Assembly: GCA_017882455.1 (NCBI GenBank)
Contig: JADGPL010000013.1
Coordinates: 25,116 to 89,115 of the forward strand
Source: Solirubrobacteraceae bacterium
Lineage (GTDB): Bacteria > Actinomycetota > Thermoleophilia > Solirubrobacterales > Solirubrobacteraceae
DNA length: 64,000 nucleotides
Direction of reading: 5' to 3'
Position numbers and translations under genes: made by a program. The notes below the pieces were generated by a model that was not told the origin of the DNA, ran no database searches, and worked only from the letters and a program-made list of their open reading frames with translations. Below, piece by piece: positions 1 through 61,944 of the stretch (position 1 is its first letter; each line of letters opens with the position of its first letter).

Positions 1-338
1 TTGTAGCCCCCGCCTTCGCCGAACTTGCCTCCGGAGTGAAGGACGGTGAGCACGACCTGGACGGCCGGCAGGCCCTCCTTGTCCATCTTGGCCACGGGGA
101 TGCCGCGGCCGTTGTCCACGACCGTGACGGAGTTGTCGGGGTGGATCGTCACCGATACGGCTGTGCAGAAGCCGGCCAGGGCCTCGTCGACGGAGTTGTC
201 CACGACCTCGTAGACGAGGTGGTGGAGGCCCATGACCCCGGTCGAGCCGATGTACATGCCGGGGCGCTTGCGAACCGCCTGGAGGCCCTCGAGGACAGTG
301 ATGTCCTGGGCGTCGTAGCTCGAGGATCCGCCCGTCAT
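1..338 (-). CDS. gyrB: DNA gyrase subunit B, N-terminal part (gene continues past the left edge)
   Basis: Reverse translation from the ATG at 338 reads [57 protein letters not shown]..., the canonical GyrB N-terminus. Synteny is gyrB-DUF721-recF-dnaN-dnaA. It is absent from the ORF track because it is open at the edge. An in-frame GTG at 353 is an alternative start. Confidence 0.9.
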
Positions 339-596
339 CGACGGGTTGTTCACGCCGCTTTCGACGACGCTCTCTTCAGAGCTGTTGCTACCTGTTGCCA
401 ATGGCCCTCCGATGACGTGAGAACGCCCCGGATTCCGGGGCGCGAAGTCCACGGCCGGGGCGGGTTTCGTATGTCCCAAATCATAGCAGGCGAGGGGTTC
501 TCCCACCGCCGTAAAACACCCCTAAATCCCTGCAAACTGCCGGGAAACTGGGTGCTCACGAGGACGCGGCGGGTGGGCGTGGGAGCGGGGAGTCCG

Positions 597-887
597 TCAG
601 CCGGTCCGGCAACGCAGCTCGCGGATGAGCTCCCGGCCGAGAGCCTCGTTGACGCGGGGGATGAGCTCCCCGGCCATCAGGTCGAGCTCCTGGGCCCACA
701 CGGCCGCCTCGCATGTCACCGTGAGCACGCCGTCGCGCTCGGCCGTGGGTCTGGCGGAGGAGGATATGGCGGGGCCGGCCACGCGCCCCCAGACCTCCTG
801 GACACGAGCGAGGGTGGTCGCCGGCGCGATCGCCGAGGTCAGGTTCCCCAGCGCCGTCGAGAGCGTTCGCGGGGCGGCTCTGCTCAA
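597..887 (-). CDS. DUF721 / DciA-like protein
   Basis: 96-aa ORF. RVQEVWGRVAGPAI...GVLTVTCEAAVWAQELDLMAGELIPRVNEALG follows the DUF721 pattern. It overlaps the recF stop by 4 nt and sits in the recF-DUF721-gyrB position typical of Actinobacteria. Confidence 0.75.
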   Translation of the reverse strand: MSRAAPRTLSTALGNLTSAIAPATTLARVQEVWGRVAGPAISSSARPTAERDGVLTVTCEAAVWAQELDLMAGELIPRVNEALGRELIRELRCRTG

Positions 888-2002
888 GCCGCGATCGCCT
901 CCTGGAGGATCGTTCCGGGGGAGATGCGCAGGCGGGTGACGTGGGCCTCGCCGGCGGTCGGGACGTGGCCGAGGTCGGTGGTGGCGATCACGCTCTGTCC
1001 GGCGGCCGAGAGCTCACCCACGAGCAACTCGCGACGCTCGCCGTCGAGCTCGCTCATCACGTCGTCGAGGAGCATCAGCGGGGTGCGTCCACGTTCGCGG
1101 GCGAGCACCGAGCGCTCGGCGAGGAGCAGCGCGAGGAGCGCCAGCCGCTGCTCGCCCTGTGAGCCGTAGACGCGCAGCTCGCGGCCGTCGCGCACGATCG
1201 CGAGCTCGTCGCGGTGCGGGCCGTGACCGGAGAATCCGCGCTCGAGGTCGCCGTCGAGGCGCTCCTGCAGCTCGGCGACGAACTGATCCTCGTCGAGGGC
1301 CTTGGAACGGGGGCGGTACTCGATCGAGACCTCACCGTTGCAGCCGAGCTGGCCTGCTTTCAGCGCAAACGGCTCCGCCAGCAGGTTCACGGCTCCGGCT
1401 CGCTGCTCCCGCAGGGTCAGCGCCTTGCTCGCGAGCTCACGATCCCACGTGGCCATCGCGGCGTGCGAGGCGCGGCCGGCACGGATACGGGCGAGCAGGG
1501 CGTTGCGCTGGGCGAGCACCCGGGAGTACTCGCGACGCGCCTGCGCGCGCGCCGGCCAGATCGCCGCGACCACCTGGTCGAGATGCGCTCGGCGCAGCGC
1601 GGGTGGGCCTTTCAGCAACTCCAGGCGATCGGGCATGAAGACGCTGATCAGCGGCCTGCTGGGCACGTCGAGCAGGCGCTCCACCTCGGCGCCGTCGGCG
1701 CTCATCCGCTTGACCGCTTGGGCGCCGCCGGTCGCGGCTTCGTATCCAACGGTCAACTCATGCGGTTCCTCGCCGTCGAGCAGGCGCACGGCCACCCTGG
1801 TCGCCGGCGCGCCGAAGCGGATCAGCTCGCGGTCGCTGCGCGTGCGAGGCGACCGGCCCGTGCACCCGAAATAGATGCCCTCGAGCAGGTTCGACTTGCC
1901 GGCGCCATTGGGCCCGTGGACGACGGTGAGGCCCGCGCCGATCCGCGCCTCGGCGCGGGCGTAGGTGCGAAAGTCGCGCATCTCCACGCTGACGACGCGC
2001 AT
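884..2002 (-). CDS. recF: DNA replication and repair protein RecF
   Basis: 372 aa. Walker A GPNGAGKSNLLEGI near the N-terminus, LLLDDVMSELD near the C-terminus. Located directly downstream of dnaN. Confidence 0.95.
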   Translation of the reverse strand: MRVVSVEMRDFRTYARAEARIGAGLTVVHGPNGAGKSNLLEGIYFGCTGRSPRTRSDRELIRFGAPATRVAVRLLDGEEPHELTVGYEAATGGAQAVKRMSADGAEVERLLDVPSRPLISVFMPDRLELLKGPPALRRAHLDQVVAAIWPARAQARREYSRVLAQRNALLARIRAGRASHAAMATWDRELASKALTLREQRAGAVNLLAEPFALKAGQLGCNGEVSIEYRPRSKALDEDQFVAELQERLDGDLERGFSGHGPHRDELAIVRDGRELRVYGSQGEQRLALLALLLAERSVLARERGRTPLMLLDDVMSELDGERRELLVGELSAAGQSVIATTDLGHVPTAGEAHVTRLRISPGTILQEAIAA

Positions 2003-2009
2003 GCCACCG

Positions 2010-3122
2010 CTACACGTTCAGGCGGATCGGCATGATGAGGTAGACGAAGTCCCCGGTGTCGGGTGATTCGATCAGGCCGGGGCGCAGGGGGCTTATGAGC
2101 TTGAGGACCAGCTCATCGGAGTCGACGCTCTCGAGCCCGTCCCGCAGGAACTCCGGGTTGAAGCCGATCTCGAAGGGCTCGCCGTGAAAGGGCACCGGGA
2201 TCGCCTCGCTGGCCTCCCCCACGTCGGGAGTCTGGGCTGAGATGGTGAGCGTGCCCTCGGTGAAGCTCAGGCGCAGCGGAGCGTTCTTCTGAGCAAGGAG
2301 ACTGATGCGTCGCACCACGTCGGTCACCTCGGCGCTCGAGAGGCGCAGCTCATGCTCGACCGACTCGGGCAGAAGCTGACGATAGTTGGGGAACTGTCCG
2401 TCGATCAACCGCGATGAGAGCACGATGTCGCCGAGCTCGAAGATGACCTGGTTCTGCCCGACGCTGACCGCAAGCGACTCGCCGGGTGCCTGCTGGGCGA
2501 TCCGCACCAGCTCCTGCAGCGCCCGTGCCGGGACGTTGGCCTCGAGGCTTCCCTGCAGCGAGGACTCCAGCGCCGTCTCCTTCACGCTGAGGCGGTAGGA
2601 GTCCGTGGCCACCATCCTCAGCTCCTGGCCGGCGGCCGACATCAGGATCCCGGTCAGAACCGGGCGCGTCTCGTCACGCGACGCGGATCTCGCGACGCGG
2701 GCAACCGTCTGCACGAAGGCCTCTGTCGGCAGCGTCACCCGTGCCTCGGGTGACGGGAGGGGAAGCGTGGGGAAATCCTCGGCTCGTAGTGTGCGGAGGT
2801 GGAATGTGGTGGGACCGCAGATGAGCTCGACGTCCTGCTCGGCGGCTCGCAGCTCCATCGTGAGCTGCTCGGCCGACAGCGAGCGGGCGACGTCGAGGAG
2901 CAGGCGCGCCGGGAGAACGGCTGCGCCGGGCCGAGCCACCTCGGCGTCCAGCGGTACCCGGAGGCCGATCTCCATGTCGGTGGCAAGCAGCTCCGGTTTC
3001 GAGTCGGCAGGGGCCGAGATCATGATCCCGGAGAGAGCCTGAACGGCGCTGCGGGTCGAGGCCACACGAGCTGCGGTCTGCAGCTGGGTGATGAGGTGCG
3101 CGGAGGAGAGCGAGAGCTTCAT
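2010..3122 (-). CDS. dnaN: DNA polymerase III beta sliding clamp
   Basis: 370 aa. Typical clamp length and position between dnaA and recF. Ends ...GDFVYLIMPIRLNV. Confidence 0.95.
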   Translation of the reverse strand: MKLSLSSAHLITQLQTAARVASTRSAVQALSGIMISAPADSKPELLATDMEIGLRVPLDAEVARPGAAVLPARLLLDVARSLSAEQLTMELRAAEQDVELICGPTTFHLRTLRAEDFPTLPLPSPEARVTLPTEAFVQTVARVARSASRDETRPVLTGILMSAAGQELRMVATDSYRLSVKETALESSLQGSLEANVPARALQELVRIAQQAPGESLAVSVGQNQVIFELGDIVLSSRLIDGQFPNYRQLLPESVEHELRLSSAEVTDVVRRISLLAQKNAPLRLSFTEGTLTISAQTPDVGEASEAIPVPFHGEPFEIGFNPEFLRDGLESVDSDELVLKLISPLRPGLIESPDTGDFVYLIMPIRLNV

Positions 3123-29819: not shown

Positions 29820-29864
29820 CCCGCGGTCGCTGTGCGAGTGCTTCCGCCGCTCGCTTGCGCTAGG

Positions 29865-29990
29865 CTTCCGCACGCCTAATCGCGGACCGGTGTTCGCGAG
29901 CGGGGGAACCGAGTTGTTGGGGCGAGTTCCGCGGTAATCCACGGAAGGCGCAGGTCGCTAGCCCGTCAGCTAACCCCGTCGGCCGACGAA
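29865..29990 (+). ncRNA. ydaO-type (c-di-AMP) riboswitch-like leader
   Basis: TAATCGCGG at 29877-29885, GAGCGGGGGAACC at 29898-29910, GGGGCGAGTTCC at 29919-29930, GTAATCCACGG at 29934-29944, GCCCGTCAGCTAACCCCGTCGGC at 29961-29983. These match my recollection of the conserved ydaO blocks (AAUCGC, GAGCGGGGGACCCA, GGGGUGAAUCC, CCGACAGCUAACCUCGUAAGC). It ends just before the RBS and TTG start of the next gene. Confidence 0.65.
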
Positions 29991-30002
29991 GAGAGGCAAG
30001 CT

Positions 30003-57340: not shown

Positions 57341-57413
57341 GGGCCGTTAGCTCAACCGGCAGAGCAGGGGCCTCTTAAGCCCAAGGTTGCAGGTTCGATT
57401 CCTGCACGGCCCA
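57341..57413 (+). tRNA. tRNA-Lys (anticodon CTT)
   Basis: GGGCCGT TA GCTC AACCGGCA GAGC A GGGGC CTCTTAA GCCCA AGGTT GCAGG TTCGATT CCTGC ACGGCCC A. The acceptor, D and T arms all pair. CCA is not encoded. Confidence 0.9.
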
Positions 57414-57491
57414 CTTCGAGGAGCTCATTGATGGCGAGCAACGGATTCCACCGCGAGAGCCCTCCAGCCCGCAGGTCCGCCCGCGGCCGGC

Positions 57492-58355
57492 TCACCCGCC
57501 GCCGCTGGCCCCGGGGAGCGTGGGTGGCGCGCTGCGTTCGCCCTGCACCGCCTGCTCCTGCCACCTGACGGCAAAGGCGCCTTCGGGTCCAGCGGCCGAC
57601 GAGGGGGAAGCCTCGATCAGGCTGCTCGAGGGGACCCCGACGGCCGCCGTGCCGCGACGGCCACCCGTGAGCGAGCTCTGGCGCAGTTCCAGCGCCGTGG
57701 TCGACCATTCGGGGTCCGCGATCGGTCCGGTGTGCCCGTGGGCGGTGGCGCTCGTGGCACTGAACTCGACCGCCCCGAAGTCGGTGAGCGCGTCCGTCCT
57801 GCAGGCGCCTGTGCCGAGGCAGATGGAGGGCGCCTCCACGATCCACTCCGCGGTGGAGACGTCCACTTTCGCCATGCGGCGGGTGATGGTGAAGCGTCCG
57901 CCGCTGCTGAGGTCGCGCAGGCGCAGGGTGGCATCGTGACCCCTGACCGTGACCGAGGCGGTCATCCGGTCGCCCGGATGCACCGCCAGGCGCACGCCCA
58001 CGGCTTCTGCCGGCAGCAGCTCGAACCAGCTCGAGTAGACGGGCCGTCCGGCCGAGCTGCAGTCGGCATCGGTGCCCACCTGCTCGAGCGAGGTGGCGCT
58101 TTCACGGGCGCCGCCGAGCCCGACCCACACGGCCGAGTAGCTTTCGCGGCCCATGGTGCACGTGGCCGTGGGCTCGGTCCACGAGCCCGAGACGCTGGCG
58201 AAGGGCGAGCCTACGCTCGAGGCGGGTACGGCCACATATCCGGCCCAGTTGCTGCTCACGTCGGCCGCCTGTGCGGATCCCGCCGCTAGCGCGAACGTGA
58301 GGACCGCTGACGCGAGCAGGCAGAGGCGGCGGATGATCTGCGATGAGCTCACCAT
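57492..58355 (-). CDS. Secreted peptidase G1 (eqolisin / scytalidoglutamic, former A4) family protein
   Basis: Tail of ORF 57492..58700 from ATG 58355. Signal peptide ending SAQAADV, then SSNWAGYV, SAVWVGLGG and TAEWIVEAP (the Gln/Glu dyad contexts). Confidence 0.7.
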   Translation of the reverse strand: MVSSSQIIRRLCLLASAVLTFALAAGSAQAADVSSNWAGYVAVPASSVGSPFASVSGSWTEPTATCTMGRESYSAVWVGLGGARESATSLEQVGTDADCSSAGRPVYSSWFELLPAEAVGVRLAVHPGDRMTASVTVRGHDATLRLRDLSSGGRFTITRRMAKVDVSTAEWIVEAPSICLGTGACRTDALTDFGAVEFSATSATAHGHTGPIADPEWSTTALELRQSSLTGGRRGTAAVGVPSSSLIEASPSSAAGPEGAFAVRWQEQAVQGERSAPPTLPGASGGG

Positions 58356-58408
58356 GGAAGTATCGGCATCTCGCCTTAGGATGCGCGTCGATTCCGTGTA
58401 AGAGATGG

Positions 58409-59737
<1,329 letters not shown>

Positions 59738-59758: not shown

Positions 59759-60556
59759 TCAGCCGGCGCGCTCGGCGAAGGTGGCGCGCTCGGCGCGGAA
59801 CTCGCGCCGCTTGTCCTCGCCGTAGAGCGGGATCAGGTCGCCGCATATCTCCACCAGGCGCGAGACCGTCCGCTCTCCCAGCCTCTCGGAGAGCTCGTCG
59901 GGCATCAGGTTGGTGGTGGCCACGACCGCCCGCTCGGCCTCGTAGCGCGCGTTCACGATCGAGTACAGCTGCTCGAGCACCCAGTCCGTGCGGTTCTCCG
60001 CGCCGAGGTCGTCGATGTGGAGCAGGTCAACCGCCGTGAGCCTGTCCATGAAGTCGAGCTTGCCCTCGGCCGAGTCCATCGACTCGCGCAGCAGGTTGAG
60101 CAGTCGCGGCAGCGAGTAGATCGCCACGGAGTGGCCCGCGTCGAGCGCCGCCTTGGACACGAGCATCGCGAGGGTGGTCTTACCCGTGCCCACGTCCCCC
60201 TGGATCCACAGGCCGCGTCCGCTGCGGAGGTTCTCCTCGATCGCCCCCACGTAGCGACGGACCGAGCGAATCTGGTCGGGGGCCGTCCTCGCGAGGTCGC
60301 TCACGGGCGGGCGATCGAAGGAGACGCCCAGGTAGCGGCGGGGGATCCGTCCGGCGAGGCTCTTCGTGCGAGCGCCAGCGATCCGAGCCGCCCGGCAGGC
60401 GCAGTCGGATGCGGTGTTGGTGGCCTCGTCGATCACGAAGCCGCTTCCATCGCAGATCCCCAACGGGCAGGAGTCCGTGGCCGCGGCGCCCGTGATGCGT
60501 CGCGAGATCAGCTCGGGCAGCTCAGGCGGCCCGGCGGCGGGGTTCTCGGCGCTCAT
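59759..60556 (-). CDS. DnaC/DnaI/IstB-like AAA+ ATPase (putative helicase loader) with an N-terminal Cys-rich module
   Basis: 265 aa from the internal ATG 60556 of ORF 59759..61243, in an ATGA overlap with the dnaB stop. CPLGICDGSGF...SDCAC, IPRRYLGVSFD, Walker A GDVGTGKTTLA, Walker B LLHIDDLGAE, sensor VATTNL. Confidence 0.8.
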   Translation of the reverse strand: MSAENPAAGPPELPELISRRITGAAATDSCPLGICDGSGFVIDEATNTASDCACRAARIAGARTKSLAGRIPRRYLGVSFDRPPVSDLARTAPDQIRSVRRYVGAIEENLRSGRGLWIQGDVGTGKTTLAMLVSKAALDAGHSVAIYSLPRLLNLLRESMDSAEGKLDFMDRLTAVDLLHIDDLGAENRTDWVLEQLYSIVNARYEAERAVVATTNLMPDELSERLGERTVSRLVEICGDLIPLYGEDKRREFRAERATFAERAG

Positions 60557-61944
60557 TCGGCGTAGCGCTCGCCCGCGTAGTTCATGAACTTGGGGTACTC
60601 CTTCTGGAAGGTGAGCGTCACTTTGCCCACAGCTCCGTTGCGATGCTTGGCGATCAGCAGGTCGGCCTCGCCGGGGCGCTCGGAGTCCTCGTTGTAGTAC
60701 TCGTCGCGGTAGATGAACATCACCAGGTCGGAGTCCTGCTCGAGGTTTCCGCTCTCGCGCAGGTCTGACAGCTGCGGTTTCTTGTCCGGCCGGGACTCGA
60801 CCGCGCGGCTCAGCTGCGAGAGCGCGATCACAGGCACGCCCAGCTCGCGCGCCAGGATCTTCAGGCCACGGCTGAGCTCGCCCACGGCGGTCACGCGGCT
60901 GTCGTAGCGGCTGTCGGTGCGCATCAGCTGCAGGTAGTCGATGATGATCAGCCCCAGGCCCCCCTCGCACTGGCTGTGCAGGCGCCTGGCCTTGGCGCGG
61001 ATCTCGAGCATGCCCACGTCGCTGGAGTCGTCCACCCACAGTGGCGATGCGGCCAGGCGCTGACTGGCGTTCAGGATCTTGGGCCAGCGTTGCTCGGAGA
61101 CCCGCCCCTTGCGCAGCTCCTCGCCCTTGATGCGCGCCTGCGAGGCGACGAAGCGCTGGGCGAGCTCGGCCTCGGCCATCTCCAGCGAGAACAGCGCCAC
61201 GGCCCTGCCGTGCTCGACCGAGGCGTTCTCCGCGATGTTGCACACGAGCGCGCTCTTGCCCATCGCGGGACGGGCAGCGATGATGATCAGGTTGCCGGGC
61301 TGGAATCCCCCGGTGATCTCGTCGAGGTCCTTGAAGCCCGACGGCGTGCCCGTGAGCGAGGTGCCCTCCAGCGACAGCCGGTGGAGCTTGTCGAGCTCCT
61401 CGTGCAGCACCTCCTCGATCGCGCGGAAGTCCTGCTGGCGATCATCGCGCGCGACCTCGAGCATCGCCTTCTCGGCCTGCTCCACGAGCTCACGCGGGGC
61501 AGCGTCGTGCCCGAGCACGCTCTCCTGGATCTCATAGGTGCTCTTCAGCAGGCGCCGCAGGAGCGCGTTCTCGCGCACGATCTGCGCGTAGCGGCGCGCG
61601 TGCCCGGCGGCCGGCACCACCCCGGTGAGCTCATCCACGGTGGCCGGTCCGCCCACGTCCTCGAGCTTGCCCGACTGGCGCAGCCGGTCTGTGACCGTCA
61701 GCACGTCCACGGGCTCGCTTTCGTTGTACAGGGCGAGCATCGCCTCGTAGACCAGCGCGTGGCGCTCGCGGTAGAAGTCCTCGGGCCGCAGGCCCTCTTC
61801 GATCACGAGCGCATACAGCGAGCGATCCGACAGCAGGATCGCCCCGAGCACCGACTGCTCGGCGTCGAGGTTGTGCGGCGGCGTGATCACGCCCGCGGAT
61901 GCGCCGTTGGCGCCGTTGGCTGTCGGGACGGCGCTCATTGCCAT
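60553..61944 (-). CDS. dnaB: Replicative DNA helicase DnaB
   Basis: 463 aa. PPHNLDAEQSVLGAILL, Walker A AARPAMGKSAL, IIIDYLQLM, ALSQLSR. No intein. Confidence 0.97.
   Translation of the reverse strand: MAMSAVPTANGANGASAGVITPPHNLDAEQSVLGAILLSDRSLYALVIEEGLRPEDFYRERHALVYEAMLALYNESEPVDVLTVTDRLRQSGKLEDVGGPATVDELTGVVPAAGHARRYAQIVRENALLRRLLKSTYEIQESVLGHDAAPRELVEQAEKAMLEVARDDRQQDFRAIEEVLHEELDKLHRLSLEGTSLTGTPSGFKDLDEITGGFQPGNLIIIAARPAMGKSALVCNIAENASVEHGRAVALFSLEMAEAELAQRFVASQARIKGEELRKGRVSEQRWPKILNASQRLAASPLWVDDSSDVGMLEIRAKARRLHSQCEGGLGLIIIDYLQLMRTDSRYDSRVTAVGELSRGLKILARELGVPVIALSQLSRAVESRPDKKPQLSDLRESGNLEQDSDLVMFIYRDEYYNEDSERPGEADLLIAKHRNGAVGKVTLTFQKEYPKFMNYAGERYAE

Follow-up and report, generated by a model that had tools for sequence, protein, structure and literature searches.

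Can the ancestral helicase operator DciA and a DnaC/DnaI-type helicase loader reside in one genome? According to the founding DciA study, dciA and a resident dna[CI] gene never occur together, and none of the seven dna[CI] domestications counted there lies in the Actinobacteria (Brezellec et al. 2016). The question is raised here by a 64,000-nucleotide stretch of DNA from a Solirubrobacteraceae bacterium (contig JADGPL010000013.1, positions 25,116 to 89,115; hereafter the window), in which the replicative helicase gene dnaB runs into an overlapping gene for a DnaC-like AAA+ ATPase, and in which a dciA-like gene encoding a DUF721 domain lies about 60 kb away. The reading that we favour, and hold to be probable, is that the AAA+ protein is a domesticated phage-type DnaC-like loader, that the DUF721 protein is a genuine DciA lacking the N- or C-terminal extension known as the lasso, and that both are stably co-maintained throughout the order Solirubrobacterales.

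The co-occurrence of the two genes, pointed out in an initial annotation of the window, is real and recurs in relatives. On the 3,853,943-bp chromosome of one relative, dnaA-dnaN-recF-dciA-gyrB occupies 1.975-1.983 Mb, and rplI-dnaB-AAA+-purA occupies 2.035-2.048 Mb of an equal-sized record, about 60 kb apart as in the window. Three further contigs (513,683, 482,815 and 67,496 bp), paired by identical size, are common to the match lists of the AAA+ protein and of DciA. The published mutual exclusivity of dciA with a resident dna[CI] gene is obeyed neither in the window nor on the 3.85-Mb chromosome. A comparable case may have sat undiscussed in the data set behind that rule, since its Supplementary Data 1 lists Conexibacter woesei, a member of the Solirubrobacterales, with one PF01695 protein and one dciA, while Rubrobacter xylanophilus is listed with one PF01695 protein and no dciA (Brezellec et al. 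2016). The two PF01695 proteins (D3FDX3_CONWI and Q1B006_RUBXD) are likely, but unproven, orthologues of the AAA+ gene of the window; when a cultured relative (Conexibacter, Rubrobacter) was sought by protein searches and cluster look-ups, only metagenome-derived proteins matched. In the literature, we found no description of a dnaB-coupled AAA+ gene coexisting with dciA in the Thermoleophilia.

Comparison of the window with the 3.85-Mb relative gave ratios of nonsynonymous to synonymous substitution rates (dN/dS) of 0.156 for dciA, 0.155 for the AAA+ gene, 0.160 for recF, 0.244 for dnaA and 0.050 for dnaB, indicating that both genes of interest are under purifying selection and that neither is decaying. 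Since both are conserved across the order and evolve at a dN/dS of about 0.16, like recF, stable co-maintenance is suggested rather than a transitional state, which had been one of three options in the initial annotation and is the least likely of them. In such a state one gene would be on its way to loss after a recent acquisition, and a parallel exists in the Vibrionaceae, where a few genomes carry dciA together with the virus-derived loader vdhL2 and were operationally scored as vdhL when acquisitions were counted (PMC11087808). As here, DciA stands in these genomes alongside a second, virus-derived candidate loader, but they number three and their loader is not an AAA+ protein, whereas the window presents a DnaC-type AAA+ gene in an order-wide pattern. 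A transition under way is very improbable for the present locus, because both genes are intact and of constant length in addition to their low dN/dS, the dnaB-linked gene is still in place at loci where identity has fallen to 51-66%, and a close donor was lacking among the phage and plasmid matches described below.

The affiliation of the AAA+ protein was approached through its motifs and its profile matches. All of the motifs named in the initial annotation are present in the 265-residue translation, namely an N-terminal cysteine cluster (CPLGICDGSGF...SDCAC, with C30, C35, C52 and C54), IPRRY at residues 71-75, GTGKTT at 123-128, IDDLG at 181-185 and TTN at 214-216. The AAA+ core contains Walker A (G120-T128), Walker B (D182/D183), a GAExxTxW motif (185-192), sensor I (T214-N216), the box VII arginines R229 and R233 and a C-terminal (sensor II) R250; this is the complete ATPase motif set of the PF01695 superfamily, and it aligns with that of E. 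coli DnaC, B. subtilis DnaI and Aquifex DnaC. In an alignment of 60 family members reaching down to 33% identity, residues C30, C52, C54, K126, R204 and R233 are invariant, and C35, P72, R157, D183, T214, R229 and R250 are conserved in at least 90%. The sensor I residue N216 is less constant (N in 56 and D in 18 of 87 sequences), and the four cysteine positions are occupied by cysteine in 68-71 of the 87, most of the others being gaps. Full-length members share the four-cysteine module, an IPxxY/F linker and the complete AAA+ core, and the module probably binds zinc.

The protein matches PF01695 (IstB_IS21) over residues 118-231 with 44.5 bits against a cut-off of 24.1, so the DnaC/DnaI/IstB architecture claimed for it earlier stands at the level of the superfamily. 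It does not extend to the curated families of either loader, as the DnaC equivalog NF005931 gave 47.3 bits (cut-off 357) and the DnaI equivalog NF006505 gave 55.3 bits (cut-off 228); Pfam DnaI_N (PF07319) was not matched at an E of 0.01 or better. PRK08116 and PRK06835, two uncharacterised DnaC-like subfamilies of NCBIfam, are the nearest curated families for 59 of the 60 family members (best member E = 5.8e-50), and the window protein scores 139 bits on the former (cut-off 189) and 99.9 bits on the latter (cut-off 215). Its strongest family match is phrog_50 (PHROG 50), annotated as "DnaC-like helicase loader", over residues 52-252 (164.6 bits, E = 9.4e-48); the PHROG library comes without curated cut-offs, and significance was judged on the profile match. 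These scores set the AAA+ protein apart in a family of its own, with a predicted zinc ribbon, whose best match is the phage DnaC-like loaders. The family is small, with only 136 clusters at E < 1e-30 in an exhaustive search of 1.84 billion representatives. Two of its members, P0274 (827 aa) and P0373 (792 aa), carry a single cysteine module at the N-terminus and, behind it, three to four DnaC-like AAA+ modules in tandem, which gives them the look of a covalently linked loader oligomer. Another, P0311 (409 aa), begins with a DnaB C-terminal segment and continues as a garbled copy of the AAA+ protein, and is most likely a frameshifted or mis-called gene across the dnaB/AAA+ junction of another lineage instead of a true fusion.

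An AlphaFold2 model built from the diverse 60-sequence alignment reached a mean predicted local distance difference test (pLDDT) score of 86.6, and an earlier model from 52 close homologues (pLDDT 54.7) was discarded. The retained model has a beta hairpin (40-43/48-51) followed by a helix (53-64) in the cysteine module, and a canonical AAA+ domain. The top Foldseek match was Aquifex DnaC (3ECC, E = 3e-11, target TM-score 0.83), then E. coli DnaC from the DnaB-DnaC complex (6QEM_G, E = 2e-10), with IstB, DnaA and DnaI after them. The Aquifex aeolicus (3ECC/3EC2) and E. coli (6QEL/6QEM) proteins share with the window protein the initiator-clade AAA+ fold, with Walker A and B, sensor I and the box VII arginine aligned, although identity is only 22-28%. 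In the loop after Walker B, the window protein reads LGAENRTDW, B. subtilis DnaI IGAESMTSW and Aquifex DnaC LGSERLSDW, the last a GxExxSxW-type motif that aligns with the GAExxTxW of the window. The E. coli DnaC N-terminus forms a helical lasso. It is without the cysteine cluster of the window protein, and in K-12 its gene follows dnaT (dnaT-dnaC), while the window order is dnaB-X-purA. By sequence, the solved structure that matches best is B. subtilis DnaI (4M4W_J, E = 1e-11). DnaI has a zinc-binding N-terminal helicase-interaction domain. The window protein differs from it in lacking a DnaI_N match, and Bacilli are scored without dciA.

The superfamily name and the presence of IstB structures among the top Foldseek matches raise the alternative that what stands beside dnaB is an IS21-type IstB helper gene or the remains of a prophage, placed there by chance. 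IstB indeed shares the Pfam family PF01695 and the AAA+ clade fold with the window protein, yet the latter scores only 62.2 bits on the IstB equivalog NF038214 (cut-off 200), and the one IstB sequence examined, from Streptomyces, has IGMLPCGQA in place of GAExxTxW in the loop after Walker B. A neighbour-joining tree of DnaC, DnaI, IstB, phage loaders and the window family (137 columns) placed IstB outside all loader-like sequences and grouped the window protein with its own family, with weak support at the deep nodes. The neighbours of the AAA+ gene are dnaB and purA in a gene order that is constant in relatives, and the check for istA that had been called for came out negative, as the gene is flanked by neither istA nor any other transposase or phage gene and occurs only once in the window. 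Among plasmids, the lone IstB-annotated match in 30 sampled rows reached E = 6e-7 only. With equivalog score, missing istA, tree and a position held in 80 species all at odds with a mobile element, the identity as an IstB helper is effectively refuted, and we give this alternative, chance prophage remnant included, next to no credence.

Relatives on phages and plasmids are distant. Only 93 of 72,556 plasmids had a match at an E of 1e-6 or better, the best being "DNA replication protein DnaC" genes of Firmicutes at 35-38% identity; the closest phage and plasmid relatives are 28-38% identical, and the closest viral relatives in IMG/VR 26-43%. These low identities indicate that any phage origin is old. 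Among phage proteins, the alignment covering most of the window protein (residues 26-236, 28% identity) was with the "DnaC-like helicase loader" that Bixzunavirus mycobacteriophages encode. An example of these PHROG 50 loaders, gp199 of Mycobacterium phage ChaylaJr, aligns along this whole range, has the same CxxC-GxG...CxC N-terminus and is encoded beside a DnaB-like helicase gene. The phage loaders are only 28-35% identical to the window protein, and the phage loader gene lies 5' of its helicase gene, whereas the window gene lies 3' of a cellular dnaB. In ChaylaJr (L094, 1429-3469), gp199 is directly 5' of gp200, the DnaB-like helicase gene, an order reversed with respect to the window.

The linkage of the AAA+ gene to dnaB was followed in a scan of one genome per GTDB species, in which at least 491 species had a relative of the AAA+ protein; the loci examined were the best 80, all from Solirubrobacterales. 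In every one of these 80 loci (identity 69-94%), dnaB was immediately upstream of the AAA+ gene. By tblastn, purA followed in 79, the exception running off its contig, and rplI was detected upstream in 75. A four-base ATGA or GTGA overlap between the dnaB stop and the AAA+ start was present in 54 of the 80, as well as in two more distant loci (L086 and L180). The order dnaB-AAA+-purA was also kept in five more divergent members at 51-66% identity (L086, L087, L088, L179 and L180), with Adenylsucc_synt (purA) matches in L086, L087, L179 and L180. The dnaB-linked conservation that the initial annotation had proposed to look for in relatives is therefore borne out. In L087 (2150-4960, 936 aa) and L179 (1362-4001, 879 aa), dnaB is interrupted by an intein with a LAGLIDADG endonuclease, and the AAA+ gene is still immediately 3'.

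A resident dna[CI] gene is recognized by short branches, a distribution congruent with the species tree and a strictly conserved genomic context (Brezellec et al. 2016). Judged by identity (69-94% in the 80 loci) and by a context kept down to 51-66%, the AAA+ gene qualifies as resident ("domesticated") in this sense. Members of the family elsewhere have other neighbours. A 51%-identical member in a Solirubrobacteraceae-labelled metagenome-assembled genome (L081 8001-8786, L082 2090-2875) sits between murJ and a GNAT acetyltransferase/lepA, and may be a relocated orthologue or a paralogue. In a Candidatus Sumerlaeota genome (L083, 7291-8738), a 34%-identical member overlaps by four bases an upstream 237-aa open reading frame (ORF) without a Pfam match, and this ORF may encode a co-loader not yet recognised as such; the ORFs beside the two dnaB-unlinked relatives inspected (the Sumerlaeota and P0262 loci) gave neither an informative Pfam match nor a sign of a DnaD-like co-loader.

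The dnaB gene itself was confirmed. Its product scored 514.9 bits on TIGR00665 DnaB (cut-off 385), matched both Pfam DnaB and DnaB_C, and had the DnaB proteins of Geobacillus, Thermus and Vibrio as its best matches among solved structures. The gene stands in the canonical order ssb-rpsR-rplI-dnaB; rpsF, present in relatives, is not listed in the window. On the minus strand, the junction with the AAA+ gene reads ...TACGCCGAATGAGCGCC... (given also as ...GCCGAATGAGCGCC...), from which it follows that the TGA stop of dnaB (60555-60553) and the ATG start of the AAA+ gene (60556-60554) share the letters ATGA, in agreement with the overlap described earlier. This is a geometry suited to translational coupling, and because the start codon overlaps the dnaB stop, the AAA+ protein is probably co-produced with DnaB. 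As a further indicator of the loader type, the "determinant residue" of DnaB was considered, which in V. cholerae is S296 and is serine in dciA species and glycine or asparagine in dnaC species (PMC8216460). The equivalent position is N292 in the window DnaB, D in Thermus DnaB, and K, S, G, E, A, N, T, D or R in 83 related sequences; the residue is uninformative outside the Gammaproteobacteria, and it was rejected as an indicator.

The second protein of the pair, the 96-residue product of the DUF721 ORF, matches Pfam PF05258 (DciA) over residues 9-92 with E = 4.2e-19 (69 bits, cut-off 24). Its gene lies between recF and a partial gyrB, both in the window and in the corresponding locus of a relative (L089), where Pfam DnaA, DNA_pol3_beta, SMC_N (RecF), DciA and GyrB follow in the same order. 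Its assignment to the DciA type is thereby upheld. The recF stop and the dciA TTG start overlap as TTGA (window 884-887, minus strand; 4001-4004 in L089), which is the same translational-coupling geometry as in the dnaB/AAA+ pair. With the window's own protein set aside, the 120 best homologues range over 95-99 aa in length at 73-83% identity, and W33 and W64 are invariant among the DUF721 homologues. A profile of 27 orthologues matched the PDB entry 7YKM, "DciA DUF721 domain" (E = 5.6e-6), and the M. tuberculosis-type DciA model aligned only through its positions 97-162 of 187. A point not raised in the initial annotation, which bears on whether this DciA can still load, is that the lasso is absent, as the domain spans 9-92 and the longest possible ORF is 96 aa; by published definitions the protein falls into "Group 4". 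These features indicate a genuine DciA-type KH domain, nearly bare, in the ancestral recF-gyrB slot. It has the DUF721/KH domain, the conserved tryptophans and the recF-gyrB position (described for 15 phyla) in common with the studied DciA proteins of Vibrio cholerae, M. tuberculosis (Rv0004) and Caulobacter crescentus, and is unlike them in lacking a lasso and in coexisting with a resident AAA+ loader-like gene. The initial annotation had named grouping of the AAA+ protein with IstB, its absence from relatives, or a DUF721 ORF devoid of DciA features as outcomes that would speak against it; what was found is a protein apart from IstB, present in relatives, and an ORF with DciA features.

What such a minimal DciA does bears directly on the exclusivity rule. 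Later work that classed DciA proteins by their extensions, and in which coexistence with AAA+ loaders was not examined, states that how a domain-only DciA functions "remains a mystery". One possibility is a functional replacement of DciA by the AAA+ protein, with the DUF721 protein repurposed, in which case exclusivity would hold by function. The protein is essentially a bare KH domain (residues 9-92 of 96), and the lasso extensions through which the DciA proteins of Vibrio and Mycobacterium bind the LH-DH element of DnaB are absent from it (PMC13501899); the PF01695 protein of Rubrobacter xylanophilus, a likely orthologue in a species listed without dciA, hints that such an ATPase can suffice. 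On the other hand, the DUF721-containing C-terminal half of M. tuberculosis DciA also binds DnaB (PMC5720831), and for Caulobacter DciA the DUF-721 domain, together with the N-terminal extension, is reported to bind single-stranded DNA (ssDNA) and thereby to promote DnaB loading (PMC12547741). Moreover, the conserved tryptophans W33 and W64 are invariant here, and dciA keeps its replication-operon position and its coupling to recF. Weighing these points, we regard a completed replacement as doubtful. B. subtilis RemB/YaaB may be a precedent for a mini-DUF721 protein beside DnaI; among the papers searched, none connects it with DUF721, and Brezellec et al. score B. subtilis without dciA.

For the favoured reading, the loader identity of the AAA+ protein is supported by coupling, motifs and homology, from which we infer the following course. 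The AAA+ protein would be co-translated with DnaB, and its zinc-ribbon and helix module would dock on the helicase, modelled on DnaC, DnaI and the C. difficile loader CD3654. ATP-bound AAA+ domains would then oligomerise on the helicase and contact ssDNA via the conserved R157 helix and the T190/W192 loop, and ATP hydrolysis through box VII R229 and R250 would release the loaded DnaB. In this scheme most ring loading would fall to the AAA+ protein, with the lasso-less DciA in an accessory role, perhaps as an adaptor on the side of ssDNA or DnaA. The bare DciA domain may be either such an accessory factor, a second loader for another situation, or a protein put to new use. CD3654 is encoded in the region of the helicase CD3657 and forms with it an ATP-dependent complex of a size consistent with six monomers each of helicase and loader (PMC5204125). 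In contrast to the DnaI and CD3654 systems, the AAA+ gene of the window overlaps dnaB directly and has no DnaD/DnaB_2-type co-loader gene nearby. A two-factor variant, in which the lasso-less DciA and the zinc-ribbon ATPase would act together on the same DnaB, DciA for instance on the ssDNA or DnaA side and the ATPase in opening or assembling the ring, is possible but less likely than not.

The roles may also be divided the other way round, with DciA remaining the helicase loader at oriC as in other Actinobacteria, and the AAA+ protein serving as a restart-only loader, a DnaB brake or chaperone, or an aid to hexamer assembly. The canonical slot of dciA, its translational coupling to recF, the purifying selection on it and the presumed sufficiency of domain-only DciA in several phyla are consistent with this, and a DnaC-like protein can act as a brake, since inhibition of the cognate helicase is seen in vitro with wild-type CD3654, and DnaB can be inhibited by E. 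coli DnaC in its ATP-bound form (PMC5204125). However, the AAA+ protein of the window keeps all loader-typical ATPase and ssDNA-contact motifs, and the tight 1:1 coupling of its gene to dnaB is what one would expect of a stoichiometric loader no less than of a regulator. To our knowledge, a DnaC/DnaI-type protein serves both initiation and restart in every studied system, and this dual role also counts against the division. We therefore judge this arrangement unlikely.

Several observations weigh against the reading that we favour. The AAA+ protein falls below every curated NCBIfam loader cut-off, DnaC and IstB are not separable by structure search alone, and the neighbour-joining tree does not resolve the sister of the window family among known loaders, its deep nodes having bootstrap values of 5-45%. 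No adjacency to dnaB was seen for family members at 49% identity or below, nor for one member at 51%, so that the linkage to dnaB is specific to one clade. Co-occurrence in relatives was verified on a handful of contigs, and beyond them rests on the parallel conservation of both families within the order. A lasso-less "Group 4" DciA is the norm in phyla without any AAA+ loader; for this reason the absent lasso is no proof of an inactive DciA. In one soil metatranscriptome run, assembled contigs cover dnaB and purA in fragments and none lies over the AAA+ gene, zero contig depth not being equivalent to absent RNA. Finally, contact of the AAA+ protein or of DciA with DnaB is proposed from sequence, and for either protein sequence data do not separate a division of labour from a non-loader function.

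The window (G+C content 68.9%) covers the replication-origin neighbourhood, and matching DNA was seen in metagenomes from permafrost, peat and soil. The nearest relatives of its proteins come from metagenome-assembled Solirubrobacteraceae genomes (class Thermoleophilia, Actinomycetota). Both replication gene blocks lie on the minus strand, dnaA-dnaN-recF-DUF721-gyrB at 1-4.7 kb and ssb-rpsR-rplI-dnaB-AAA+-purA at 58-63.4 kb, and their features are listed in Table 1.

Table 1. Position and basis of assignment of the replication genes and AAA+ protein features in the window
Feature	Position	Strand	Basis and remarks
dnaB, replicative DNA helicase	60553..61944	-	463 aa, no intein; TIGR00665 and Pfam DnaB, DnaB_C
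AAA+ gene, DnaC-like helicase loader candidate with predicted zinc ribbon	59759..60556	-	265 aa; PF01695, phrog_50
ATGA overlap of dnaB stop and AAA+ start	60553..60556	-	Read from the sequence
N-terminal four-cysteine module of the AAA+ protein, predicted zinc ribbon	60395..60469	-	C30, C35, C52, C54; CPxGxCDGSG...CxC
AAA+ core, residues about 105-252	59801..60244	-	Motifs and family alignment
dciA-like gene, DUF721/KH domain, without lasso extension	597..887	-	96 aa, TTG start; PF05258
recF	884..2002	-	ORF; stop overlaps dciA TTG start
gyrB, 5' part, runs off the window	1..419	-	tblastn with L089 GyrB N-terminus: 82% identity at 33-407; extent also given as 33..~419
dnaN	2010-3122	-	ORF; origin-region operon with recF-dciA-gyrB
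dnaA	3277-4662	-	ORF; origin-region operon with recF-dciA-gyrB
purA, conserved downstream neighbour of the AAA+ gene	58409..59725	-	ORF; tblastn in relatives

Two further features of the window were recorded. A cyclic di-AMP (ydaO-type) riboswitch is located at 29863-30000 on the plus strand (60.9 bits, gathering score 38), and the gene directly 3' of it (30003/30039-30743, plus strand) encodes a Peptidase_M23 protein, which is likely a cell-wall hydrolase. At 57492-58700 on the minus strand, adjoining tRNA-Lys (57341-57414), a 402-aa protein with a Peptidase_A4 domain (E = 1.4e-27) is encoded, a domain that we take to be of the eqolisin/scytalidoglutamic type, better known from fungi.

In the current picture, the ancestral DciA is lost whenever a phage-derived DnaC/DnaI protein becomes resident, and this picture rests on one observation. 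The AAA+ gene described here is a new resident member of the phage-type DnaC-like proteins, and its order-wide coexistence with a minimal DciA contradicts the published exclusivity rule. If selection maintains both genes in an entire order, with the ATPase gene physically coupled to dnaB, that order would constitute a natural exception to exclusivity. The count of domestication events would rise by one, in a phylum outside the five listed with resident loaders, and whether the two helper types are incompatible could be tested directly with two small proteins and one helicase. The role of a bare DUF721 domain can also be addressed in this system. If the two-factor reading were true, nothing inherent would keep DciA and DnaC-type loaders apart, and the pairing would be similar to the intermediate stage at which, in other lineages, DciA gave way to DnaC-type loaders.

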